From a virus (Duplodnaviria; Heunggongvirae; Uroviricota; Caudoviricetes), in IMG/VR virus record IMGVR_UViG_3300042569_003232, positions 1-64,000 of that record: a stretch of 64,000 nt of DNA, one strand, 5' to 3'. The notes under the pieces are model-generated. The model did not search any database, was not told where the DNA came from, and saw only the letters and a program-made list of their open reading frames with translations. Positions within the stretch are counted from its first letter, which is position 1; every line of letters begins with the position of its first letter. Made by a program: the position numbers and the translations under genes. Shown here piece by piece: positions 3,926 to 50,543 of this stretch.

Positions 3926-4156
3926 TTATCTTGCATCAAGATCAATTATATGATGAAAATAGTCCAATGAAAGCATTTGATTTAAAAATACTGTGCGTGG
4001 GTTGAATTGATCATGTTGGAACTGGTACGAATTAACATCATTGTAATTTTGCATGCCAAATCTTTTAATATCTGATGTATGACTCGTTCTAAATATACAA
4101 ACTATACAAACTTTATCATAAACAGAACGGTACACTGTAAATGTTAAATTTTTCAT
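3926..4156 (-). CDS. small protein, tag-only member of the HLLTLDY-tag family
   Basis: C-terminus QMLSLDYFHH; first of a tandem array of 9. Confidence 0.5.
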   Translation of the reverse strand: MKNLTFTVYRSVYDKVCIVCIFRTSHTSDIKRFGMQNYNDVNSYQFQHDQFNPRTVFLNQMLSLDYFHHIIDLDAR

Positions 4157-5721: not shown

Positions 5722-5897
5722 GAAATATAATCTAGTGAAATCAAATGTCTAAAACTTTCCGAAGAACTGTTTGTAACTTCTAAACAACTAGTTTCTTGAT
5801 AATATCCCGTCATCCGAAATACATATAAAGTAGATTCATTATTAGATAATGTACGAGCTTTACCATAAGTCTTAAAAAAAAGAATTTTATTCATCAT
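5697..5897 (-). CDS. small protein, tag-only member of the HLLTLDY-tag family
   Basis: C-terminus FRHLISLDYISCIKDSDI; ATG-ATG start. Confidence 0.5.
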   Translation of the reverse strand: MMNKILFFKTYGKARTLSNNESTLYVFRMTGYYQETSCLEVTNSSSESFRHLISLDYISCIKDSDI

Positions 5898-6078
5898 TAA
5901 TATTCATCTTATCATCTTTCCGACGAAGCCGAATCTTTGCAAGTTTTCTGGAAAATTTCTTAAAAATATTAAGATTAGAAATATCGCGGCAGCAATAGCA
6001 ACCGTATTTTCCACGTTTGTTTTTGCTGCCGTTTTTACAAAGTTTTTTCTGTTCTTGTCGAAAAATATCCATAATCAA
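5887..6078 (-). CDS. hypothetical basic Cys-containing small protein
   Basis: 63 aa, Lys/Arg-rich with CYCC. Confidence 0.3.
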   Translation of the reverse strand: MIMDIFRQEQKKLCKNGSKNKRGKYGCYCCRDISNLNIFKKFSRKLAKIRLRRKDDKMNINDE

Positions 6079-6476
6079 TTAAAGTCAATAACTGTCTCAA
6101 ACCTATTTTGCATTTTATTCAAAGTATGTTGAGGAACATTATGGATGTTACCATAGTTTTCTGTCAAAGTCAAGATTTCAAAAGGAATTTTGAGATTATT
6201 AGCAATAGTAATATATGGCTCAATTTCCTTTTTTGTTGTAAACGTGTTGCTGACAACAACTGTATACCCTGCGCTCAGTGCAAAAAAGGTGGCAGTCTGG
6301 CACCACTTGTGAGCATCCGGGACATGAGAAGGGACAAAAACATACTCACCATCCCGCTCAAAATACATATCTGCCTCATAATGTTTATATGTAGGATTTT
6401 CAGCAAGAATCTGTTTCGCTTTAGTGGTTTTTCCACTACCGGGCAGACCACGAATAATAATAAGTTTGTTGTTCAT
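6075..6476 (-). CDS. P-loop kinase, polynucleotide 5'-kinase-like (kinase domain only)
   Basis: KLIIIRGLPGSGKTT Walker A and a VVVSNTF block resemble the T4 Pnk kinase domain (KIILTIGCPGSGKST...VIISDTN). No HAD phosphatase domain is attached. Confidence 0.5.
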   Translation of the reverse strand: MNNKLIIIRGLPGSGKTTKAKQILAENPTYKHYEADMYFERDGEYVFVPSHVPDAHKWCQTATFFALSAGYTVVVSNTFTTKKEIEPYITIANNLKIPFEILTLTENYGNIHNVPQHTLNKMQNRFETVIDFN

Positions 6477-7341: not shown

Positions 7342-7764
7342 TCATAGTGCTTTTAGTTGATTTTCAAGTTTTTCCAATTCCAATTTTGTGTTTCGAATTT
7401 TTTCTTCTAATCTCTTTTTGTCCTCGACGACTGCATATTGTTCAAAAATTTTTATTTGTTTGTCATAATACTCAAAATCAATTGAATATTGAATTAATTG
7501 TTCTTCATAGCGTTCGTTTTCCTCTTCCTCAATTACATCAAAAAAGACATCCATTTTATAATCAACATCCATTTCATAACTCATTTCAGTTATTTTTACT
7601 TTTTGTTGTAATTCTTCATCAGAAATATTCAAACGATTTTTTATACCATTTGCTATTTCTTCTAAAGTTACTCCTTCCCTACTAAGGGTCGAAATTTGTA
7701 TTCCCTGACTAATTCGCCGCACAATAGTTTTCTGCGGCATTTTTGGCAATCTCGGTAAAATCAT
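7342..7764 (-). CDS. hypothetical coiled-coil protein
   Basis: 140 aa with a Glu/Lys-rich heptad-like C-terminus. Confidence 0.4.
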   Translation of the reverse strand: MILPRLPKMPQKTIVRRISQGIQISTLSREGVTLEEIANGIKNRLNISDEELQQKVKITEMSYEMDVDYKMDVFFDVIEEEENERYEEQLIQYSIDFEYYDKQIKIFEQYAVVEDKKRLEEKIRNTKLELEKLENQLKAL

Positions 7765-12651: not shown

Positions 12652-13767
12652 TTAAAAATCTCTGATTCGGAGAAGTTTTCCAAATCTCGGAATGTTGTCA
12701 CTAGTAACACCAAAATACTTTACTGTCCAGTATTTATTTTTGTATTTTTCCTTGTTAGTTAGCAAGTCCCTAGAATAGCCGTCCTCGCCGTTTACGCCAA
12801 CACCAAAGGTCTTACCATCAGGCAATGCCATAATCGCTCTAGTAGCCAATCCTGAGCGATTGCCGACCCCTTCTTCAAGGTCCACAAGAAGGAACTCAGC
12901 ATCATCAAAACGTTTCATTTTAAGGAGACTTTCGGTTCTTCCATGAACATATGAAGAATTCAAGAATCGAATCATTAAGCCTTCATAACCCATTGAAATA
13001 AATTTATTTTCCTGTTCAAAAAGTTCCGCTTCGTTATCAACATATACGGAAGGAACAATTTTTACTTTATTAAATTTATTTGAATCATTCAACAAGTCGT
13101 GTACCAATCCTTCTCTCAAAACCATGGGCCATACACTGTGTTTTCCTGCAATATCATAAACATGATATTCTATCAGATTTTTAGATTCCTCTAATTGTTT
13201 TTTTGTTACCTTTTGTTTTCGAATAATCGACATTATCTTTTCAAATTCATTTTTCAATGAATGATTATACAATTCTCCATCCAATACCATTCCTTCTTCT
13301 AAAACATCTTTCAATTCATCTAGAATATGGGGAATTGAAACAATTTCTTCTCCTTTTCTAGTTTGAGCATATGGCTTTCCATCTTTTAGATAAATTATAC
13401 ATCTTCCGCCGTCCAATTTTGGTTGAACAATTACAGGATAAACAATTTTATGTTTTTCGTCCTGATATTTTTTTGCCAGCATTGGCTCAAAAAACTTTTG
13501 AACAATATTATGCTGGTCCAGTGAACCATTTTGTTCCAACTTTTTTTGCCACTTGGATTCTGCTTCTGCAATTGCTTGTTCAAACCCATTCCGATAATTC
13601 GCTTTTCCTTTATTTTTAGGCAAGCATTTTGTAAACTTTGAAACTGTTTGTTTACCATCAATCAAACCTTCAATTGTTCGAAATGAATCATCAGCTACTT
13701 CGATTTGCCAAATTCTCGTTCTTTTTGATTTATCTAAGCTGTAAATTGGAGGAAATGTTTTATTCAT
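12652..13767 (-). CDS. ATP-dependent DNA ligase
   Basis: Motif I PKLDGGR, motif III LDGELY, motif IV EGLMIR and motif V LLKMKRF. Confidence 0.8.
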   Translation of the reverse strand: MNKTFPPIYSLDKSKRTRIWQIEVADDSFRTIEGLIDGKQTVSKFTKCLPKNKGKANYRNGFEQAIAEAESKWQKKLEQNGSLDQHNIVQKFFEPMLAKKYQDEKHKIVYPVIVQPKLDGGRCIIYLKDGKPYAQTRKGEEIVSIPHILDELKDVLEEGMVLDGELYNHSLKNEFEKIMSIIRKQKVTKKQLEESKNLIEYHVYDIAGKHSVWPMVLREGLVHDLLNDSNKFNKVKIVPSVYVDNEAELFEQENKFISMGYEGLMIRFLNSSYVHGRTESLLKMKRFDDAEFLLVDLEEGVGNRSGLATRAIMALPDGKTFGVGVNGEDGYSRDLLTNKEKYKNKYWTVKYFGVTSDNIPRFGKLLRIRDF

Positions 13768-18807: not shown

Positions 18808-19698
18808 TTACTTCACCATTTCATTAAAATTCATCAAAGGCTGAATTTCTCCTCCAATGAACTTTGGCAATTCTCCATTCCAACCTTCAATTGCCCGCAT
18901 CTTCAATACATCTGGATTAGCACGAATACTCTCGCCTTCTAGTTGAAGGGCTTTTGCCTTTGCTTTTGCTTCTGCTTCATATGCATATGCCTTTGCATCC
19001 GCCGCAATTTTCGTTTTTTCCGCTTCCATCGCAGACGCTTCCTTGTCTGCTCGCGCCTTTTCCACCTGTTGTTGCTGCTCTGTCTTAAACCTTGACAATT
19101 CTGCTTCTTGTTCTTGTGCTTTTTGTTCCCTGACCTTTTTAGCAGTTACTCCATCTTGGATAACCTTTGGCAAAATAACATCCCGTACCATAACCTCTTC
19201 AATTAGAATGCCTTTTGTAAGCATATACTTCGACAATTCTTCTGTCATTGAAACTTGAATTCTTTGTTGAGTTTCATTATTAAAAAATTCCTCTGCGGTT
19301 TTAACACTGCGACTTGCTTCACGAATCAAACTGCGGGTTTTTGGATCAATATGTCGAGCAATAATAGCATCCCTATCTCCCGTATTTTGATAAAGTTGTG
19401 GAGCACTCTTGCTGTCAATTCGCCACTTAATTGAAATATCTGCTTGAGAAGTTAGTTGATCCTGACTTGGAAAACTAATATCATCCAATGTATAAACATC
19501 TTGACGACAATCCAGATCATGAACTTTAGAAAGAGGATTCAAAAAGTGAATTCCTTCCGGCAAAGTTTCATTGCTAACTTTTCCAAAGGTTGTGACAACC
19601 CCTGTGTTTCCAGTTGGAACTTTGTGACAACTGGAAACTGTTAGGCAGAATGCAGCAAAAGCAGTAGTGAATGCGAGTGTAAATGTAACAGGATTCAT
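18808..19698 (-). CDS. SPFH/Band-7 (stomatin/HflC-like) domain membrane protein
   Basis: N-terminal signal/TM segment, Band-7 core (TGNTGVVTTFGKV...) and a C-terminal Ala/Glu/Lys-rich coiled coil. Confidence 0.65.
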   Translation of the reverse strand: MNPVTFTLAFTTAFAAFCLTVSSCHKVPTGNTGVVTTFGKVSNETLPEGIHFLNPLSKVHDLDCRQDVYTLDDISFPSQDQLTSQADISIKWRIDSKSAPQLYQNTGDRDAIIARHIDPKTRSLIREASRSVKTAEEFFNNETQQRIQVSMTEELSKYMLTKGILIEEVMVRDVILPKVIQDGVTAKKVREQKAQEQEAELSRFKTEQQQQVEKARADKEASAMEAEKTKIAADAKAYAYEAEAKAKAKALQLEGESIRANPDVLKMRAIEGWNGELPKFIGGEIQPLMNFNEMVK

Positions 19699-19740: not shown

Positions 19741-19815
19741 TGGTAGACCGTCAGGGATTCGAACCCTGTTCACCAGATTAAAAGTCTAGTGCTTAACCAT
19801 ACAAGCTCACGGTCC
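19741..19815 (-). tRNA. tRNA-Lys (anticodon UUU)
   Basis: Reverse complement: GGACCGT acceptor, GCTT-GTATGGTT-AAGC D arm, anticodon loop CTTTTAA, T arm CAGGG-TTCGAAT-CCCTG, encoded CCA. Confidence 0.85.
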
Positions 19816-19971
19816 AGATTATCAGAATATTTTTATTTCAATTTAACAGATTGATTTTTTTGGTTTGCTGTAAATATTCTTATTTGATTTTATCGTCCTT
19901 TTCGTTAAGATATGTAAATCTTAAATAAATCAGGGAAACACTAAAACAACCGCATTAAAGAGTTTTTGCTG

Positions 19972-43137: not shown

Positions 43138-43459
43138 AAGTAAAACAATTGCAGACAAGATTGCTGATACAAAAATCTTGCTGGATAAATATCTTCAATC
43201 TAAAAAAGAGCGGGAAGAACTTATAGTTAATACTACATTCGAAAAAATTATTAATGAATTACACTCCCTTTTAAAGAATTATATTGATGATCCATACCAG
43301 ACCATTAATATTGATCTAAGAATTGAGACACCACTACTAGTCAATAATCTTCATTTGGCAGAACTTGTAAAAAGCCGTTGTCAGCAGTATTTTAATTTGG
43401 CTACGATAATATCACAAAATGATGGTGCTGCATTCTATATTATTATAAAAAATGAATAA
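43130..43459 (+). CDS. hypothetical protein
   Basis: 109-aa ORF. Confidence 0.4.
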   Translation: MNKSKTIADKIADTKILLDKYLQSKKEREELIVNTTFEKIINELHSLLKNYIDDPYQTINIDLRIETPLLVNNLHLAELVKSRCQQYFNLATIISQNDGAAFYIIIKNE

Positions 43460-44150
43460 CATTGTTCTATACGGTGATACACATGGTTTTTGGAGTAGAA
43501 TGAGTAATCGCATTCGCCAAAATCACGAAAATTCTTATATTATTCATGTTGGAGATTTTGGAGTAGTGGATGAAGATCGTATTGAAAGTTACTATCTGGA
43601 ATCTCTTCAAAAAGCATTGGAAAAAAAGAATTGTTTTCTTTATGTAATAAGGGGTAATCACGATAATCCGAACCGTTTTCTAAAAACTCATCATCCTTAT
43701 GGGTTTTCCAATATACTCTTTCTTCCAGATTATACCGAACTCAATCTGCTAGGGAAAAAGATTTTACTAGTTGGTGGCGGTATAAGCGTTGATCGGTATA
43801 AGCGAACAGAAGGAGAAGATTATTGGAAGGACGAAAAGTTCAAATTTGATCCAAATTATGAATACATCAATTATGATTTAGTTGTAACACATATTAAACC
43901 AAGAAGTTGTAATTGTAAAAAAGGATACAAAGACATTCAATATCATATTGATCAAGATATAAACTTGTTGAGAGATTTAATCGAAGAATCCGAAGAAGCA
44001 GACAAACTTTATCAAAAAACCAAACCTGCGGATTGGATTTTTGGTCATTATCATCTTAGTTTTACTGAAAAATTCGAAGATACAATTTTCAAATGTTTAA
44101 ATGTTGATGAAGATTATCTATACTATTCTACTAAACCACCTTTCCAATAA
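43452..44150 (+). CDS. calcineurin-like metallophosphoesterase (PPP-type phosphatase)
   Basis: GDTHG, VGDFG(v)D and RGNHDN motifs in canonical order. Confidence 0.75.
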   Translation: MNNIVLYGDTHGFWSRMSNRIRQNHENSYIIHVGDFGVVDEDRIESYYLESLQKALEKKNCFLYVIRGNHDNPNRFLKTHHPYGFSNILFLPDYTELNLLGKKILLVGGGISVDRYKRTEGEDYWKDEKFKFDPNYEYINYDLVVTHIKPRSCNCKKGYKDIQYHIDQDINLLRDLIEESEEADKLYQKTKPADWIFGHYHLSFTEKFEDTIFKCLNVDEDYLYYSTKPPFQ

Positions 44151-44158
44151 CTATATAA

Positions 44159-44668
44159 ATGAGCGAAAATCTTCCTGATATTGAAAAATATAAATCTCTC
44201 ATTGAATTGGATAATATTCGTCTGGAATATTATAAAAAGAATCCTGAATTGATTATAGAATCAACTCCATGGGAAGCAGTTGCAGTTTGTGCTATGTGCT
44301 ATTCCAGAATAGCACTTGATCATAGTTGTCTCCGCCCTGCATCCTTAAATGTAGGTTATACTTCATATAAGGAAAGAATTCCTAAATGCCCGAATTGCAA
44401 ATATCGTTATCCAAAACATTTACGCAATACTTCAAAAGTTAAAGATAAAGATACTGCAATCTTTTTCAGAATTCCCTATTTAATTATACGATGTCGTTCT
44501 CATATCTTAGAGAAAAATATCAGACAGAATTTTTTTGGTAAAATATTAGAAATCACAATAAACAAATTTGATGAAATTCAAATAATTGAGGATCATTCTA
44601 ATATGGAAATCGTGGAAAAAGATTTAGTAGCATCCAATCTAGCATATGACTTAGGACTAAACTTATGA
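44159..44668 (+). CDS. Cys-cluster (zinc-finger-like) protein, paralog of 45833..46327
   Basis: N-terminal IEKYKSLIELDNIRLEYYKKNPELIIES...AVCAMCY...CPNCKYR is shared with 45833..46327. Confidence 0.45.
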   Translation: MSENLPDIEKYKSLIELDNIRLEYYKKNPELIIESTPWEAVAVCAMCYSRIALDHSCLRPASLNVGYTSYKERIPKCPNCKYRYPKHLRNTSKVKDKDTAIFFRIPYLIIRCRSHILEKNIRQNFFGKILEITINKFDEIQIIEDHSNMEIVEKDLVASNLAYDLGLNL

Positions 44669-44782
44669 AAATTATTATCACAATTATCACACTATTTTTT
44701 ATAGTAATCACAGTTCCAGATTATTCTAGGCATAGTCCTAAAATGAACAAGCACTTAAATCAAAAATATATTTGTTAACTAT

Positions 44783-45061
44783 ATGAAACATCTACCGATA
44801 ATCACTGGTATAATGAATGTAATTTTGGCATGTACTGTATGGTTTTTTGCATATCAATTAGAAATTGAAAAACAGAAAAATCAAACAGTTAAAGTAGATG
44901 ATTATGTAAAATGGTTAACAACTCTGCCAACATCACATTTTAGAAATAATATGTTAATTGTTTTTCGGGCAGAGTTTGAGAAAGACAGTAAACTTTTGTT
45001 TTCTATTCTAGAATCTTATAATGAAATGAAAAATGAAGAAAATGAAGAATTGCAGAAGTAA
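44783..45061 (+). CDS. small membrane protein
   Basis: N-terminal hydrophobic helix. Confidence 0.4.
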   Translation: MKHLPIITGIMNVILACTVWFFAYQLEIEKQKNQTVKVDDYVKWLTTLPTSHFRNNMLIVFRAEFEKDSKLLFSILESYNEMKNEENEELQK

Positions 45062-45069
45062 ATATCTGC

Positions 45070-45840
45070 ATGTATAAAATCTTCTTATTCTCTTTACTAT
45101 TCATTTCATCATGTGCATCAGTTAAACCTTTACCAAATGTTCCAAAACATCGAACACCATCAAAAACGGCAAAAGTTTTTTATCCACTAAATAACTGGAG
45201 TATAAATTCTGCAAATGATTTGAAAAATGTTCAAAAACAATTAAATGCAACAATTCTCAAAGACGAAGAAATTACTATTCTTGATTTAAATGGTGGTATT
45301 ATTGATGGAGAAAAACAAAAAGGAGACGGTAGTCAAAACGAAAGTCAAGAACCATTATTCAGAGCAAACATACCATTTGTAATAAAGAATGGCTTTATAA
45401 GAAATAACAAAAATGCGGCCACTTTTGCGGCCAAAAATAGTGGAATAGAAAAGGTAACATTTTTGAATATTGGAGAAGATGCAGTAGCAACGTCTCGAAA
45501 AGCAATAAATTTTTCAGTAAGTGATTGCGAATTTTTAAATAGTAAAAATGGGGATAAAAGTGTGCAACTCAACCAAGCAGAAAATGCAGTAGTGGAGAAA
45601 AACCTAGTTTATGGAGGCATTACTGGTGTAAGAGTTCATGAGAGTTCATGGGCAGATTCCAACACTACTGCATTTTGTGGAGATAACTCTTTTATAGGTG
45701 TTGACACTGCATGGAATGTGAGTAAAGGTGTGTTAATTGTAGAAAAGAAAAATTCTTATAAAAACGTAAGATTGCCATTTAAGGTTAATCAAAACGCAAA
45801 AATTACAAACCCAGACGGAAAAGTCGAAAATAATGAATAA
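45070..45840 (+). CDS. lipoprotein, possible right-handed beta-helix (polysaccharide lyase-like)
   Basis: Lipobox FISSC. Gly/Asn-rich repeats (NGGIIDGEK, VTFLNIGEDAV, LVYGGITGV) suggest a parallel beta-helix. Weak call. Confidence 0.35.
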   Translation: MYKIFLFSLLFISSCASVKPLPNVPKHRTPSKTAKVFYPLNNWSINSANDLKNVQKQLNATILKDEEITILDLNGGIIDGEKQKGDGSQNESQEPLFRANIPFVIKNGFIRNNKNAATFAAKNSGIEKVTFLNIGEDAVATSRKAINFSVSDCEFLNSKNGDKSVQLNQAENAVVEKNLVYGGITGVRVHESSWADSNTTAFCGDNSFIGVDTAWNVSKGVLIVEKKNSYKNVRLPFKVNQNAKITNPDGKVENNE

Positions 45841-46327
45841 TGAACCTACTATTGACAAATACAAATCATTAATTGAAATGGATAATCTTCGTTTGGATTA
45901 TTTTAAGAAAAATCCAGAGTTGATAATCGAATCTAAAGAATGGAGAACATTTGCAGTTTGTGCAAAGTGCTATGCTAAAATTTCGCTAAATCACAATTGT
46001 TTAAATCGTACAGTTCATTATTTTCCATATTATAGAACAGGTTGCCCCGGATGTAAATATCGAAATAACACGTATTTGCTCTCACTGTCTATTGAAAGCA
46101 TTCCAATTCTGGAATATCCAATTCCTCATTTAGTAATTCGTACTCGTACACATGTAATAAATCGAACAAAAAAATCTAAATTTGGTTTTTTTACAAAAAT
46201 TGTAGAAGATTGCGTAATTGAAACAGAAGTTCTGGAAGACAATTCATCTAAAGAAAAACAAATAGAATTAATTGCTAAAATTAAATCTGGAACAGATTTT
46301 ATATTTGAAAAACTGAGATTAACATGA
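45833..46327 (+). CDS. Cys-cluster (zinc-finger-like) protein, paralog of 44159..44668
   Basis: See 44159..44668. Confidence 0.45.
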   Translation: MNNEPTIDKYKSLIEMDNLRLDYFKKNPELIIESKEWRTFAVCAKCYAKISLNHNCLNRTVHYFPYYRTGCPGCKYRNNTYLLSLSIESIPILEYPIPHLVIRTRTHVINRTKKSKFGFFTKIVEDCVIETEVLEDNSSKEKQIELIAKIKSGTDFIFEKLRLT

Positions 46328-46767
46328 AAACCGTTACTAATTTTTCCAGAAAAAATATCAGAGAATACAATCAGAAATTATCTAAAGATAGTGCAATTTG
46401 GATTAGTATTGGAGAACCCGGCGAGGAAAACAGTAAAGTTGTAAATGAGAGTTTGTCAGAAATTCCTCATTTGCATTTGGATTTTTGGGATGTAGTTCAA
46501 CCAATTGAATTCGATGGAGAAATTTTCCATCCTCCGAGTGATGAAGATGCCAGAAAAATCGTTGATTTTATTTTAGAACATAAAGACAAAGATATTTTGG
46601 TAAATTGTGCAGCAGGAGTTAGCCGCAGTGGTGCAATTGCCCAATTCTGTAGTTATGCATTAGCTTATAAGTGGACCGAAAATGGTAAACGAAAAGCTGT
46701 TCCTAATTTTTTATTATACAATAAAATGATTTCATATTATCTTTCAAAAAATGAACCAGAAGTATAA
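46324..46767 (+). CDS. cysteine-based (CX5R) dual-specificity/RNA-phosphatase-like protein
   Basis: VNCAAGVSRSGAI matches the PTP/DSP P-loop signature HCxxGxxRS. Coupled by ATG/stop overlap to the downstream ligase. Confidence 0.6.
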   Translation: MKTVTNFSRKNIREYNQKLSKDSAIWISIGEPGEENSKVVNESLSEIPHLHLDFWDVVQPIEFDGEIFHPPSDEDARKIVDFILEHKDKDILVNCAAGVSRSGAIAQFCSYALAYKWTENGKRKAVPNFLLYNKMISYYLSKNEPEV

Positions 46768-47398
46768 AAAGTATCCACGGACTTTTCATTTTCCATTTTC
46801 AGAAGGAGTAACCAGTGATGATAAAGTTCAACACGATTTAAGTGTATTCAAGGATGAAATCGTGGTTACTAAAAAGATGGATGGGGAAAATACCACAATG
46901 TATAATGATAATATTCATGCTAGAAGCATTGATAGTAAGCATCATCCCTCAAGAGATTACGTCAAGAAATTTCATTCAGAAATAAAACATCACATTCCTG
47001 AGAATTTCAGGATTTGCGGAGAAAATTTATATGCAAAACATAGTATTTTCTACGAAAATCTAGAAAGTTATTTTTTGGTATTTAGTATTTGGGAAGATGA
47101 TGTTTGTTTAAGCTGGGATGATACAATTGAATATTGTGAATTATTAAATCTTAAAACTGTTCCAGTTTTATTCACTGGTCAATGGAAAAAATCACCCGAA
47201 GAATTTCATCTAGAAATGCAAAAAACTTTAGATTTTTCTAAAGATGAAGGTTATGTAGTTAGAAGTCGAAACTGTTTCCATGAAAACGAATTTTCTAAAA
47301 AAGTTATAAAATTTGTCAGAAAAAATCATGTACAAACAAGTTCACATTGGATGACTGAAGAAATTTGTAAAAACCTTCTTGACTGTCCGCAAATCTAA
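46751..47398 (+). CDS. minimal nucleotidyltransferase RNA ligase (PF09414/DraRnl-like)
   Basis: N-terminal KYPRTFHFPFSEG, motif I KMDGEN, motif III ICGENLYAKH, motif IV DEGYVVR and motif V KVIKFVRK. Confidence 0.65.
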   Translation: MNQKYKKYPRTFHFPFSEGVTSDDKVQHDLSVFKDEIVVTKKMDGENTTMYNDNIHARSIDSKHHPSRDYVKKFHSEIKHHIPENFRICGENLYAKHSIFYENLESYFLVFSIWEDDVCLSWDDTIEYCELLNLKTVPVLFTGQWKKSPEEFHLEMQKTLDFSKDEGYVVRSRNCFHENEFSKKVIKFVRKNHVQTSSHWMTEEICKNLLDCPQI

Positions 47399-47430
47399 TG
47401 TAAGTTACCCCCTCAAAGGAGATAAAAATT

Positions 47431-49137
47431 ATGTTCACTACTAAAAAAACACAACTATTCCAAACACCCGAAAAGCAAAAATCCGTGAAAAACTCTCCGG
47501 TTCAAAACGTTACATCATCTGCATTTGTTAATGCTGCACTGAATATTCAGAATAACACTCTTTCCGAAAATGGTGCTGTTAAATTGAAAAGCACTTTGGA
47601 CCCATTTGTTGATCAATTTGGTCAAACGAGTAATTACCTAAAACTTCGCTCTTTTGCTGAAATTGAAAAGGATTGTGAAACTCTTTGGGCACTTGATCCG
47701 CTCAATACCGTAAAGTTCGCGCATTTTCTTCGTACAATTCCTCGCAAAGTGTCCATGTTTGATGGATCGGTTACAGAAGAACCACAAAAAGGTTCCGAAT
47801 TGAAGCATGAAAGTATTATGCGAATGATTTGGTTGAGTACAAAAAGTCCAGAAACTTTTTGGAGCAACATTGTATTGTTTATTAGTCTTGGAAGTTGGCA
47901 TGATGTTTTCACTATGCTTCAAACCGATCTCATTTATAATGGATGGGAAAATAAGAAATTGGATTGGAAGAAATTTGGTGATCTGATTTTCTCTGGATTG
48001 AACAACACTAACACTGTGAACTTGGTAAAGAAATATCTTCCACAAGTTAAGACTCGCAGTGTATGTAAGAGCGTGGAAAGCCAAGCTAATTGCATGATTG
48101 CAAAATGGATTTGCAGTTTGCTTTTTGGAAGTAAACAGACCTCTTATAATTATAAGTTGTACCGTCAGTTGAAAACTAGTGGATCTGCTCATGAATGGCA
48201 AAAACTTATTTCTCAAAAGCGATTCTCAGAAATTAAGTTTGATCAAATTCATGGTCGGGCACTTAATTTGCTGGTAAAGAGTAAATTCCTTAAAAATCAA
48301 AATCTTACGGATCAATATAGTGCATGGATTAAATCTCCTGAAACAAAAGATGTGAAGTATACTGGATTTGTACATGATTTGTTTGGAACACTTCCTGATC
48401 ATCTTAGTAGCGTGGACTTGCATGTTCGTGAAACAATTAACAAGCAATTTTCTACTCTGGTAGAAAAAGCAAAGAGTGAAAAAAATGATAAATCAACTGA
48501 TTGGATTGTGGTTCGGGATACTTCAGGATCTATGGAATCAAATGCAATTGGAACAAAGATTAGTTCTTATGATATTGCAAAATCAATTGCTCTGTATTTT
48601 TCAGAATTTCTATCAGGTCGTTTTGCAAATTCTTGGATTGAATTTAATTCTGATGCAAAATTGCATTCTTGGAAAGGTCAAACGCCAATTGAAAAATGGT
48701 TTAATGATGATTCATCATGTGTTGGATCAACCGACTTCCAAAGTGTAATTGATTTGTTCGTAACTTTGAAGAAAACGGGAATCTCTGAAAGTGAATTTCC
48801 AAAAGGAATTCTTTGCATTAGTGATGGCGAATTCAATCCAAGTCAACTAAATGAAACAAATGTTCAAACTGCTCGAAAGAAACTATTGAGTGGTGGTTTT
48901 AGTGAAGATTTTGCAAATTCTTTCCAAATTGTATTGTGGAATATTCCAAATAGTTATTATGGACATGTAAAACCAAAATTCGAAACTACTGCAAAGGAAA
49001 AAGGATCGTACTATTTCTCTGGTTATAGTCCGTCTATTATTTCATTCTTGAATGGTCATGAAATTGAAACTCCCCGGCAATTGTTTGATGCAGCAATGAA
49101 TCAACAAATCTTGAATTTGATTGAAGTAAAAGTTTGA
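47431..49137 (+). CDS. vWA-domain protein, possibly Ro60/TROVE-like
   Basis: C-terminal vWA domain with MIDAS DTSGSM and downstream ...ISDGEFNP. About 350 aa of helical N-terminal region. Size and architecture resemble bacterial Rsr, but N-terminal similarity could not be confirmed by eye. Good SD (aaaggag) upstream. Confidence 0.4.
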   Translation: MFTTKKTQLFQTPEKQKSVKNSPVQNVTSSAFVNAALNIQNNTLSENGAVKLKSTLDPFVDQFGQTSNYLKLRSFAEIEKDCETLWALDPLNTVKFAHFLRTIPRKVSMFDGSVTEEPQKGSELKHESIMRMIWLSTKSPETFWSNIVLFISLGSWHDVFTMLQTDLIYNGWENKKLDWKKFGDLIFSGLNNTNTVNLVKKYLPQVKTRSVCKSVESQANCMIAKWICSLLFGSKQTSYNYKLYRQLKTSGSAHEWQKLISQKRFSEIKFDQIHGRALNLLVKSKFLKNQNLTDQYSAWIKSPETKDVKYTGFVHDLFGTLPDHLSSVDLHVRETINKQFSTLVEKAKSEKNDKSTDWIVVRDTSGSMESNAIGTKISSYDIAKSIALYFSEFLSGRFANSWIEFNSDAKLHSWKGQTPIEKWFNDDSSCVGSTDFQSVIDLFVTLKKTGISESEFPKGILCISDGEFNPSQLNETNVQTARKKLLSGGFSEDFANSFQIVLWNIPNSYYGHVKPKFETTAKEKGSYYFSGYSPSIISFLNGHEIETPRQLFDAAMNQQILNLIEVKV

Positions 49138-49223
49138 CAGTATATTAAACTGTCTGGTGGAAAACCGTTGCTTCACAGCACGTCCCTAACCTTTTCGGTT
49201 GCTCAGGTTAAACCGTATTTTTT
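49136..49223 (+). terminator. tandem hairpins after the vWA gene, the second followed by a T run
   Basis: gacagtatattaaactgtc, then cggtt-gctcaggtta-aaccg followed by tatttttt. Confidence 0.5.
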
Positions 49224-49276
49224 CTAAAAACGCATACAGCAAATAATTATGAATCTACAAAATTCAAAAATGCGTT

Positions 49277-49501
49277 TTGATTAATAATTTTATGAATATT
49301 ATAATTTTTAGTATAATTGTTACTGCATTGTTGATTGTTTCGCTCATTCTTATTCAAATCCTATTGGATAAATTGAACACTCAAAGAATAGTTAATATAA
49401 CATTAAATGCTGAGGTAAAGGAACTGGAAAGAGAAATATTGACTTATTATTCGGATGAAATCATCGACCTAGATGAGCAGCATGATGAATATGGAATTTA
49501 A
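49277..49501 (+). CDS. small membrane protein
   Basis: Listed start is TTG; the likely ATG is at 49292 (MNIIIFSIIVTALLIVSLILIQ). Confidence 0.35.
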   Translation: MINNFMNIIIFSIIVTALLIVSLILIQILLDKLNTQRIVNITLNAEVKELEREILTYYSDEIIDLDEQHDEYGI

Positions 49502-49790
49502 CGAAAAATTAGATAAAATCCAAAAATTAGAAAACGATTGGGACGGTCATGGTTCACCGCCATTTTCTAAAACTACAATTGAAACAACTAGGAAATTTTT
49601 GAATCTTTTATGTCAAGGGTTCACGGTATATAGTGTAGCACCAACTAGTGACGATAGCATTTTAGTAAAATTAACTACTAATAATGATAAACTAATTATG
49701 TTGGAAATTGAGGAAAATGATATTGGAATTGCAGTGGAAATAAATGAAAAAGGGGAGAAATATACATACTTTGATGTTCAATTAAAATAA
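49473..49790 (+). CDS. hypothetical protein
   Basis: 105-aa ORF. Confidence 0.4.
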   Translation: MSSMMNMEFNEKLDKIQKLENDWDGHGSPPFSKTTIETTRKFLNLLCQGFTVYSVAPTSDDSILVKLTTNNDKLIMLEIEENDIGIAVEINEKGEKYTYFDVQLK

Positions 49791-49793
49791 TAA

Positions 49794-50543
49794 ATGAAAA
49801 TACTTTTACAAAAAAAGAAAATTAGTAATGAATGGAATAGTCAATTTGAATCATTTTCAAAAGCTCTAACATACAATCAAATTTTGACAGAAGAAAAAGA
49901 TTTTATTTTCTGGTCATATTATTTGGCAATTGGAAATTTCGATTTTGTCGAAAAAAGTAAAAACATCGGAGCAAATGTTTTCGAGAATTCTGAATGGTTT
50001 AAATATAGCTATTATGCTCGTTTTTTTGGCGATGAATTATTAAATCGTGATTATTGTATTTTACCTGCCGTTGAGCTTAAAAGATTAAAATATGAAATCT
50101 TGGGAAGATATTCCGAGGATTGTAAAATCTTTGTTCGTCCAGATGCCGGAAATAAAGTATTCACAGGAACAATTCTGGATATAGAAGAATTTGATAGTTT
50201 CTCAGAAGAGTACAATGAAAATCTAGTTGTGATTAGCAAGCCCAATTTTGACATTACCGGAGAGTGGCGTTTTGCGGCTTCCTGCGAGGGGGAAATTTTA
50301 GGAGTGTCTTTGTACCGCTACAGCAACAACCTTGTTTCTGCGGCTTCCTGTCCACCAAAGATGATGGACTACGTAACTAGTCTCCTAAAAGATTTTAAAG
50401 AGTATCCAAATAAAATCTTAACAATAGATATTGCATCTATAAATGATAAACGTTATAAAGTTATTGAATGCAATGCATTTTCTACTTCCGGGTTATATGC
50501 TATGAAACCCGAAAAGATTGTTGAATATATAAAACTATTATAA
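49794..50543 (+). CDS. hypothetical protein (possible ATP-grasp-like fold)
   Basis: 249 aa; the ATP-grasp suggestion is only a weak impression. Confidence 0.35.
   Translation: MKILLQKKKISNEWNSQFESFSKALTYNQILTEEKDFIFWSYYLAIGNFDFVEKSKNIGANVFENSEWFKYSYYARFFGDELLNRDYCILPAVELKRLKYEILGRYSEDCKIFVRPDAGNKVFTGTILDIEEFDSFSEEYNENLVVISKPNFDITGEWRFAASCEGEILGVSLYRYSNNLVSAASCPPKMMDYVTSLLKDFKEYPNKILTIDIASINDKRYKVIECNAFSTSGLYAMKPEKIVEYIKLL

Follow-up and report, generated by a model that had tools for sequence, protein, structure and literature searches.

Particles of Ro60 and Y RNA have been described in animals, in some bacteria and in a few phages. In Salmonella, the rsr-yrl-rtcBA operon (rsr-yrlBA-rtcBA) provides a functional precedent for a Ro60 gene beside a ligase. 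A phage Ro60 with adjacent Y-like RNAs is already established: that of Thermus phage phiLo binds two adjacent Y-like RNAs and also the host PNPase (PMC12135203). YrlA RNAs encoded on the strand of a Ro60 gene, no more than 4 kb from it, were reported from 254 bacteria and 22 phages (PMC4201824), and Iyer et al. interpreted the ROT/TROVE protein, which occurs in a subset of jumbo phages, as a platform for repair that has a tRNA-like partner (PMC7824862). Here we analyzed a 64,000-nt stretch of a Caudoviricetes virus (hereafter, the window; positions 1 to 64,000 of IMG/VR record IMGVR_UViG_3300042569_003232), in which a plus-strand gene for a 568-aa Ro60-like protein (47431..49137) is followed by a candidate small RNA with an ACAGCAA motif and preceded by genes for an RNA ligase (215 aa, 46751..47398) and a Cys-phosphatase (147 aa, 46324..46767). 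The ORF listing places all three genes on the plus strand, with the lengths and motifs given by an earlier interpretation made by a model from the letters and open reading frames (hereafter, the sequence-only reading), which had taken the three genes and the non-coding sequence behind them for an RNA repair cassette.

We consider it fairly probable that the locus combines a phage Ro60-type gene with a candidate partner RNA, and that RNA-end enzymes specific to this lineage stand beside the pair. The locus differs from the described systems in the DUF2828/DUF7788 branch of the protein, the ACAGCAA handle of the RNA, its arrays among tRNAs, the anticodon-arm-like modules, a start-codon mimic in some relatives and the unrelated enzymes of this clade. 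DUF2828/DUF7788 is a large and mostly unannotated family (231 phage records and >1500 metagenomic proteins) that is placed here in the Ro60 class by its predicted fold, and it would thereby gain a recognizable and easily searched candidate partner RNA. A widespread small RNA tied to an unannotated Ro60-like family is, in our opinion, of more interest than a cassette.

The 568-aa protein matched DUF7788 over its C-terminal third (49.1 bits; Pfam cut-off 27.1) and DUF2828 at its N-terminus, the latter with 22.5 bits and thus under the cut-off of 29, which relatives of the protein do reach. In PHROG it matched phrog_850, annotated 'RNA-binding protein' (E 3e-30, residues 30-551). An AlphaFold model based on 37 relatives (pLDDT 82.5, pTM 0.81) is all-helical over residues 31-350 and then continues into an alpha/beta domain, corresponding to a TROVE-like helical ring (approximately residues 31-350; nt 47521-48480, plus strand) and a C-terminal vWA domain (nt 48493-49134, plus strand) with a complete MIDAS (D363, S365, S367, T434 and D465). 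In the 37 relatives D363, S367, T434 and D465 are invariant, and S365 is conserved in at least 90%. The top five matches of the model in a Foldseek comparison against the PDB were all TROVE/Ro60 entries, with about 550 aligned columns. By its predicted structure, the protein is a ring-shaped RNA-binding protein whose TROVE-like helical ring is closed by a metal-binding vWA domain. The model supports a Ro60-like architecture in a divergent, phage-rich branch outside the Pfam-defined TROVE family, and the resemblance to Ro60/Rsr that had been noted from length and domain order thus holds at the level of architecture.

A tblastn search of phage records retrieved 231 genomes with a relative of the 568-aa protein. 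The 'Ro-like RNA binding protein' of mycobacteriophages aligned over its full length, with 22% identity over 93% of the length, and itself belongs to DUF2828 plus DUF7788 according to Pfam; it is represented by Loadrie gp54 and LeBron gp53, and ACAGCAA units follow the Loadrie gene. The phiLo system (Yrl1/Yrl2; PMC12135203; PDB 9l5y) shares with the window the presence of stem-closed small RNAs beside the gene on the same strand and, by analogy, its likely role of co-opting host RNA decay or surveillance. The phiLo protein shows only about 12% identity to the window protein, which belongs to another Pfam family (DUF2828/DUF7788). The phiLo RNAs were defined by a CGAA motif and are located upstream, whereas the RNAs of the window family carry ACAGCAA, are mostly downstream and are often arrayed with tRNAs.

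The non-coding stretch behind the 568-aa gene extends 139 nt to the next TTG-initiated ORF, or 154 nt to an ATG at 49292, which is the start used on identical metagenomic contigs. About 150 nt of highly structured RNA had been proposed here. The fold of the whole spacer is unremarkable (minimum free energy -27 kcal/mol versus -22.8 +/- 3.5 in shuffled sequences; z -1.21; 25/200 shuffles as good), and its 5' two-thirds alone have z -0.82. The 3' part (49225-49285) does better than its shuffles (z -2.36, 2/200), so that the proposal stands for the last ~55 nt, which form a conserved unit, and not for the spacer as a whole. At gathering score, Rfam returned nothing in the spacer and only seven tRNAs in the window, the number of tRNAs already counted from the sequence and also obtained with ARAGORN. 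A permissive Rfam search of the spacer gave a weak Dicty_Class_I_RNA match (17.7 bits) as its sole result; YrlA (RF02553) did not match the spacer at E<=10, and a T-loop is absent from it. An nhmmer search of the relatives with the whole spacer found nothing. Short-word blastn picked up a 13-mer, CATACAGCAAATA, which reappears next to the gene in many relatives.

The conserved part of the spacer is a Y-RNA-like unit of about 55 nt (unit 1; 49227..49285, plus strand) that begins about 90 nt past the stop codon of the 568-aa gene. Its 9-bp terminal stem pairs 49227-49235 with 49270-49278 (AAAACGCAU/AUGCGUUUU) and encloses ACAGCAAA at 49236-49243 and an inner hairpin of 5 bp with a 7-nt loop (49250-49266, loop CUACAAA); a GAUUAAU tail follows. 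A search for stems of this type located a second unit (unit 2; 19816..19880, minus strand), in which 19880-19872 pairs with 19832-19824, ACAGCAAA occupies 19871-19864 and the inner hairpin (19854-19838) has the loop CUGUUAA. The covariance model R1, described below, matched unit 1 at 49227-49278 (22.8 bits, E 3e-3) and unit 2 at 19844-19880 (24.5 bits, E 1e-3), and these were its only matches below E 0.01 in the window. Unit 2 is separated by an 8-nt spacer (GAUAAUCU) from a tRNA-Lys(UUU) gene (19741..19815, minus strand; ARAGORN and Rfam), with which it is probably co-transcribed. A promoter-like TTTACA-18-GATAAA site would start transcription at the AAG of unit 2, and an SPFH/Band 7 gene (18808-19698, minus strand) lies immediately downstream of tRNA-Lys and unit 2.

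We profiled the element in DUF2828 loci, comprising IMG/VR loci and named phages with flanks of +/-4 kb (labels such as L001 denote individual loci), and used phage loci fetched with the ligase as controls. A consensus unit starts with (A)AG and 6-7 variable stem bases, continues with ACAGCAA(A/U) and an interior, and closes with the complementary strand, whose last bases are CU, before GAUA(AG). In 751 kb of DUF2828 loci, the gene strand has 226 copies of ACAGCAAA and the opposite strand has 14, versus 15 and 15 in 617 kb of control loci. The bases preceding the motif find their complement 30-150 nt downstream, and each copy has its own stem of 8-9 bp. An exact 8-nt reverse complement of the preceding bases was present 20-175 nt downstream for 98 of 189 occurrences, versus 1, 3 and 1 in three controls, and for none of the 30 occurrences in control loci; by this exact-complement test, a unit was validated in 53 of 83 loci. 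Covariation was seen at all 8 stem pairs across 92 units, with 267 double-change cells versus 75 in shuffles. Pairing reaches 99.9% in register and 35-42% in slid registers, the former by construction because the aligned units were chosen for pairing, so the covariation and the exact-complement count are the real tests.

The model R1 covers the stem, motif and tail, and was built from units with the variable interior trimmed because MAFFT on full-length units misregistered the 3' stem strand. It gave 112 matches at E<=0.01 in DUF2828 loci, each of them on the gene strand; 671 kb of control loci had no match. Units with stems of 6-7 bp or with a different start (Thrax2, Loadrie) are missed by R1 and were found by eye and motif. 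Two other interpretations were tried: a hammerhead reading of CUGAUAAG was rejected, as we judged the essential G to be replaced and the topology to be unfit, and a reading of TGATAA-N16-17-A/T-rich as tandem promoters was dropped because the unit-specific complementary stems covary.

The element is found co-oriented beside the DUF2828 gene in most relatives examined, and 154 units are located downstream of the gene (97 within 1 kb) versus 24 upstream. Examples are Leptolyngbya phage Lbo-JY46, with five units just past the stop codon; Bacillus phage Thrax2, with four units between a tRNA array and the gene, one of them after TTGACA-17-TATAAT; and Mycobacterium phage Loadrie, with three units after gp54, the middle one having T- and D-arms. 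The Loadrie units differ in that their stems begin with UGG.. rather than AG.., in a GC-rich genome, and they are missed by Rfam YrlA as well as by R1. In several relatives, sigma-70-type consensus promoters (e.g., TTGACA-17-TATAAT), often located behind the intrinsic terminator of the DUF2828 gene, are spaced such that the predicted transcription start is the 5' AG of the leading unit; such promoters were seen in L002 (3421-3520), in L179 (~7610-7700) and, just past the gene, in L010, L009 and L015. In Cronobacter phage S13 (T4-like; L003) an ACAGCAA unit was not found; two long 'tRNAs' of 121 and 113 nt, one of them typed 'OTHER', lie about 500 nt downstream of the DUF2828 gene (5883-6126), and a different partner RNA is possible there.

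In 13 of 57 distinct relatives the ORF itself opens with AG-AUG-UUU-RAC-AGC-AAA, and in 10 of these 13 the complement ACAUCU follows 25-110 nt on; the control rate was 2 in 328 windows, and R1 also matches these start sites. The mimic spans the first ~65 nt of the ORF, with the AUG inside the 5' stem strand (L021, L022, L025, L027, L029, L031, L040, L046, L050 and L053, at about locus position 3999-4065). Judged by its sequence, this start-codon unit resembles an autoregulatory operator mimic, which suggests that translation may be autoregulated and that the protein may read the element through a putative binding interaction.

Two size classes of units differ in their interior. Short units (median ~65 nt) have an A/U-rich interior; an inner 5-bp stem capped by a 7-nt loop is present in 53 of 102, compared with 15.9 +/- 3.5 for shuffled interiors. 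Among those 53 inner loops, 22 fit the YU-NNN-RA anticodon-loop pattern (0.6 expected); CUUUUAA is the commonest (seven times), followed by CUUGUAA (three times), CUCGUAA, CUGAUAA and CUUCUAA, and (A/U)UUGGU(A/U) makes up a second class. Such anticodon-like hairpins are present in short units of L001, L018, L035, L063, L066, L069, L070, L074, L084 and others, as well as in the two units of the window. Of 71 long units (90-150 nt), 43 carry a T-loop motif, which no short unit does. One long unit aligned end to end with Rfam YrlA, including the T- and D-arms (39.4 bits, E 5e-7), and the YrlA scores of long units in relatives, 39.4 and 33.3 bits, are all under the gathering score of 69.

Short units were also matched by the Rfam model of Dictyostelium Class I RNAs, with up to 39.3 bits (E 6e-4; gathering score 41.5). 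Those at 29-39 bits include L001 6734-6791, L019 6379-6432, L035 6202-6259 and L022 6319-6384, and no phage unit reached the gathering score, including in a further 16 loci scanned. Like the phage units, dictyostelid Class I RNAs (RF01414; PMC7919456) are about 60 nt long, start with (A)AG and have a terminal stem that varies in sequence and keeps its pairing, next to a motif containing UACAGCAA, with a variable A/U-rich interior and a CUG(U/A) end. They differ in being eukaryotic and reported as specific to Dictyostelia, in using a DUSE promoter and in binding the RRM protein CIBP (PMC7919456). The resemblance is striking but sub-threshold, and homology and convergence are both possible. If confirmed, this likeness of whole RNAs to those of social amoebae and the anticodon-arm-like inner hairpins would interest specialists. 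The ACAGCAA RNA family appears to be undescribed: our literature search returned no paper that describes the element or links DUF2828 to RNA, which is not proof of novelty, and searches on phage anticodon-loop decoys and on Dictyostelium TROVE proteins likewise yielded nothing relevant to the element.

From the gene models, folds, motifs, covarying element and genomic association, we infer how the four parts may bind, function and cooperate. By analogy with known Ro60 particles, the 568-aa protein would bind the terminal stem and ACAGCAA motif of a unit; the RNA might then gate the ring or tether it to other factors, for example host exonucleases like PNPase; and the particle could act on tRNAs, tRNA-like RNAs or damaged RNAs during infection. 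The upstream ligase and, less certainly, the Cys-phosphatase would be lineage-specific additions that may heal and seal the RNA ends handled by the particle. Such a role would parallel the bacterial rsr-yrl-rtcBA operon, with unrelated enzymes. What the window has in common with bacterial Rsr and its YrlA/YrlB RNAs is a protein of the Ro60 type with Y-like RNA genes in the same orientation no more than 4 kb away (PMC4201824), some of these RNAs having tRNA-like modules, and a gene string that includes an RNA ligase and a putative RNA-end-modifying enzyme. The window ligase is ATP-dependent (PF09414) rather than RtcB, and the second enzyme is a Cys-phosphatase rather than the RtcA cyclase; the adjacent genes are PF09414 and DSP-like (of the dual-specificity phosphatase type), and the resemblance to rsr-yrl-rtcBA is functional only. 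In addition, the window RNA is without the T/D-arm domain of YrlA, and the enzyme linkage is not conserved among relatives.

A broader version of the Ro60-partner reading is conceivable, although we regard it as unlikely in its full extent: the units would be dedicated ligands of DUF2828 proteins across phages of cyanobacteria, Firmicutes, Actinobacteria and uncultured hosts, serving as modular baits, decoys or guides against tRNA nucleases, with the ligase recruited in this lineage and the Class I RNAs belonging to the same class. The units would then form a modular library, with a constant handle (terminal stem plus ACAGCAA) and exchangeable anticodon-arm or tRNA-like modules. If true, the module of this clade would be a Ro60-centred repair hub made from parts unrelated to RtcB/RtcA, and the dictyostelid Class I RNAs would represent the RNA class in eukaryotes, perhaps with a DUF2828-type protein as their partner.

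Several results weigh against a Ro60-type gene with its own partner RNA. The 568-aa protein had no TROVE (PF05731) match in Pfam at E<=0.1, and a sequence search of the PDB with the protein alone or with a 37-sequence family profile retrieved no Ro60/TROVE chain; membership of the Ro60 class is argued from the fold and the phage intermediates. The window copy downstream of the gene is a single unit with an off-consensus tail (GAUUAAU) and a weak R1 score (22.8 bits), and a recognizable promoter for unit 1 was not found. Neither the window gene (AUGUUCACUACUAAA) nor its closest relatives have the start-codon mimic. Because the elements often sit in tRNA arrays, they could serve the processing of tRNA transcripts instead of the protein. 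For the enzymes, the association was sampled (+/-4 kb; tblastn and HMMs) in two sets of 80 IMG/VR loci, one retrieved with the Ro60-like protein (40-65% identity) and the other with the ligase, and two of the three genes were found together in 0/80 of the former and 0/80 of the latter, query-identical strains aside. Outside one phage clade, the ligase and the phosphatase are linked to the Ro60-like gene by no conserved neighbourhood or gene fusion.

A single RNA-repair operon, as proposed in the sequence-only reading, is the alternative that survives best, and we see it as improbable: the phosphatase would heal RNA ends, the ligase would seal them and the Ro60-like particle would present damaged tRNA or other RNA, together countering anticodon nucleases. 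Its attraction lies in tightly packed, co-directional genes with no terminator-like site between them, the Salmonella precedent and the resemblance of the inner RNA hairpins to anticodon loops. The three genes had been described as overlapping, which is correct for phosphatase and ligase (17 nt), while ligase and 568-aa gene are separated by 32 nt. The genome moreover encodes a PNK-like kinase, a second RNA ligase, a Metallophos protein, Pth2 and seven tRNAs, and mycobacteriophage LeBron has Ro-like, PNK and RNA-ligase genes, although the latter two are not adjacent to the Ro-like gene (PMC13148394). Beyond the window, the ligase/Ro60-like adjacency recurs in L179 and L180, a sister sub-lineage in which the order is phosphatase, two small ORFs, ligase and Ro60-like gene, after which come a promoter and at least six arrayed units; the phosphatase is about 1 kb upstream, and identities to the window are 64% (ligase), 63% (Ro60-like) and 43% (phosphatase). 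Within the clade examined, the phosphatase is confined to the two sub-lineages with a Ro60-like gene, a co-occurrence that is at most a weak hint of a link.

Set against this, a second member of the trio was missing from all 160 sampled loci, and the 489 ORFs flanking DUF2828 genes fell into 320 clusters, the largest of which was present in just 10 of 81 loci; among the ten largest, the only ones scanned, no RNA-repair enzyme was seen save one Metallophos phosphoesterase (4 loci). The ligase/Ro60-like adjacency is limited to two sub-lineages within one clade; common descent explains both it and the shared arrangement in L179. The closest relatives of the ligase (L181-L183, 66-68% identity) carry Metallophos 5' of the ligase, with the phosphatase and the Ro60-like gene both absent; Metallophos abuts the ligase in L183, and in L181 and L182 a gene for an IS605-type TnpB (OrfB_IS605 / Cas12f-like) on the opposite strand (L181 3284-4495, L182 1987-3198) and a small ORF intervene. 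A Metallophos homologue was found beside the ligase family in just 2/80 other loci. The trio as a conserved functional cassette is thus not supported.

The phosphatase also tends to speak against such an operon. Its P-loop (C95-AAGVS-R101; CX5R, VNCAAGVSRSG) and the candidate general acid D56 bear out the CX5R assignment made earlier, and the C-x-A-G-x-S-R-S-G loop is invariant in 19 relatives, which also have in common an F-x-D motif as a possible source of the general acid. The family profile matched DUSP14, 16, 18, 10 and 22, baculovirus PTP-2 and vaccinia H1 at E ~1e-4, and the fold is nearest to STYX and atypical DUSPs, with the RNA 5'-phosphatases BVP and PIR1 ranking 32nd and 41st. The 147-aa protein is a generic atypical dual-specificity phosphatase fold, which says nothing on its substrate. 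Cys-phosphatases are not known to heal 2',3'-cyclic or 3'-phosphate ends, and we counted this against the operon. Relatives of the phosphatase stand in unrelated contexts: four are amid unrelated genes, one of them with an Rnl2-type ligase 2 kb off, and those in Pseudomonas phages are unlinked to RNA enzymes. The sequence-only reading had named two results that together would speak against it, a 568-aa protein without TROVE similarity and a phosphatase of the protein-phosphatase kind; the phosphatase does resemble protein phosphatases, and TROVE similarity is present in the fold, so the repair idea is weakened for the enzymes and not refuted.

The KxDG ligase proposed from the sequence is a full match to PF09414 (113 bits, E 2e-32; cut-off 27; whole model covered), with the ligase domain at residues 35-189 and motifs I (K42-x-DG), IV (EGYVVR) and V (KFVRK); PHROG assigned it to phrog_34045 and phrog_24030, both 'RNA ligase'. 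Motifs I, III, IV and V are invariant (K42, D44, G45, E91, E166, G167, R171, K187 and R190) in jumbo-phage relatives, which include those of XacN1, CcrSC, ME3 and RsoM2USA. The family comprises 4899 proteins at E<=1e-10, mostly stand-alone and 205-215 aa long; some bear an N-terminal HNH nuclease or other extension, which the window ligase is without, and no phosphatase fusion was found among the top 120 relatives. Comparison with the PDB, by single sequence or profile, gave nothing useful. Judged by these motifs, the 215-aa protein is a bona fide ATP-dependent RNA-ligase nucleotidyltransferase and an ordinary member of a known phage family. Rnl2 and Rnl5 need an extra domain for nick sealing (C-terminal in Rnl2, N-terminal and OB-like in Rnl5); the window ligase is without these and differs from Rnl1, Rnl2 and Rnl5 in being a bare nucleotidyltransferase domain of 215 aa. 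T4 with Pnkp/Rnl1 (and Rnl2) likewise combines a phage RNA ligase, end-healing enzymes and phage tRNAs countering anticodon nucleases, but its 3'-phosphatase is of HAD type and fused to the kinase, in contrast to the adjacent Cys-phosphatase of the window.

The units could alternatively punctuate RNA-gene islands, as promoter-proximal leaders or as processing or stability signals of tRNA arrays, or act as stand-alone anticodon-arm decoys or reduced tRNAs, with the Ro60-like gene merely co-resident. We hold this to be very unlikely, even though tRNA genes are six-fold denser in DUF2828 loci than in controls (0.37 versus 0.06 per kb), being present in 43 of 80 loci with 270 genes in total, all co-oriented and 13 of them within 100 nt. 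The islands of DUF2828 loci L012-L090 also include tmRNAs, and units are interleaved with the tRNAs and tmRNAs; unit 2 of the window abuts tRNA-Lys, the consensus promoters would start transcription at the 5' AG of a unit, and the inner loops match the anticodon-loop pattern. However, the control loci hold 37 tRNAs and zero units, many DUF2828 loci have units with no tRNA within 4 kb (e.g., L001, L035, L019, L015), and only one of the seven tRNAs in the window, tRNA-Lys, has a unit in its 5' flank. That 10-13 of 57 relatives have a start-codon unit would be difficult to account for if the protein did not read the element, and the long units match YrlA, a known class of Ro60 partner. The same islands hold a hatchet ribozyme (L027 1435-1585), a group I intron (L075 2443-2653) and an abiF RNA (L075 1631-1668).

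That the three genes are unrelated accessory neighbours in a hyperplastic early/middle region, the phosphatase acting on host or phage phosphoproteins or on small molecules and the ligase with Metallophos, fits the long string of small co-directional ORFs with content that varies between relatives (including the IS605 TnpB insertion), the DSP fold nearest to protein and atypical DUSPs, the unlinked Pseudomonas phage relatives and the position of Metallophos, which directly precedes the ligase in L183 and is close by in L181/L182, but we dismiss it as highly improbable, as the ligase/Ro60-like adjacency survived ~37% protein divergence in two sub-lineages, Metallophos accompanies this ligase family in just 2/80 other loci, and the proposal denies only the enzyme link and is compatible with the Ro60-like gene and its RNA as a unit.

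The preferred reading, a Ro60-type gene with its partner RNA and lineage-specific enzymes beside it, involves genes that are part of a longer series. The packed plus-strand gene string extends past the trio, over at least 44159-50543, and because it continues in the same direction on both sides, the three-gene boundary is arbitrary and was the choice of the sequence-only reading. Upstream, a 164-aa ORF overlaps the start of the phosphatase gene by 4 nt. It is one of two paralogous Cys-rich ORFs (44159-44668, 169 aa; 45833-46327, 164 aa), both of which begin M..E..I(E/D)KYKSLIE(L/M)DN(I/L)RL.Y(Y/F)KKNPELIIES and match no Pfam or PHROG family; a homologue lies directly 5' of the ligase in L181 and L182. 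A calcineurin-like phosphoesterase (Metallophos; 43452..44150, plus strand) was taken from precomputed Pfam annotations of identical contigs. Downstream, an R2K-clade ATP-grasp protein (PF18299/PF14243; phrog_7313) is encoded at 49794-50543 within the string and is followed by ribonucleotide reductase.

The whole region is present as identical copies on freshwater metagenome contigs of up to 136 kb, and as a DNA query against phage records it gave two short matches only. NCBIfam had no match for the phosphatase, the ligase or the 568-aa protein, and PADLOC returned nothing meaningful. Two small hairpins precede unit 1 in the spacer. The first, GACAGU-AUAUUAA-ACUGUC (49136..49154, plus strand), spans the stop codon in the predicted fold and has a counterpart in L179 (GUCAGU/ACUGAC) with compensatory changes. 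The second, CGG..CCG followed by a U-run (49197..49215, plus strand), has counterparts in L179 (ACGG..CCGU) and L008 (GCGG..CCGC), again with compensatory changes; it is possibly a weak terminator or a lineage-specific motif, and a terminator scan did not call it.

Other RNA-related genes that had been listed elsewhere in the window were largely recovered. The PNK-like kinase (6075-6476, minus strand) is a P-loop kinase (AAA_33 at E 1.4e-12), PTH2 is recorded downstream on identical contigs, and an additional RNA ligase of 332 aa (PF09414; 11633-12634, minus strand) was found with Pfam; an Rnl2 query taken from L095 found no paralogue in the window. A 'split third ligase-like gene' had also been reported, and if 12652-13767 (minus strand) was meant, it is not split, being an intact ATP-dependent DNA ligase with an OB domain. 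The 332-aa RNA ligase gene lies directly beside this intact DNA ligase gene.

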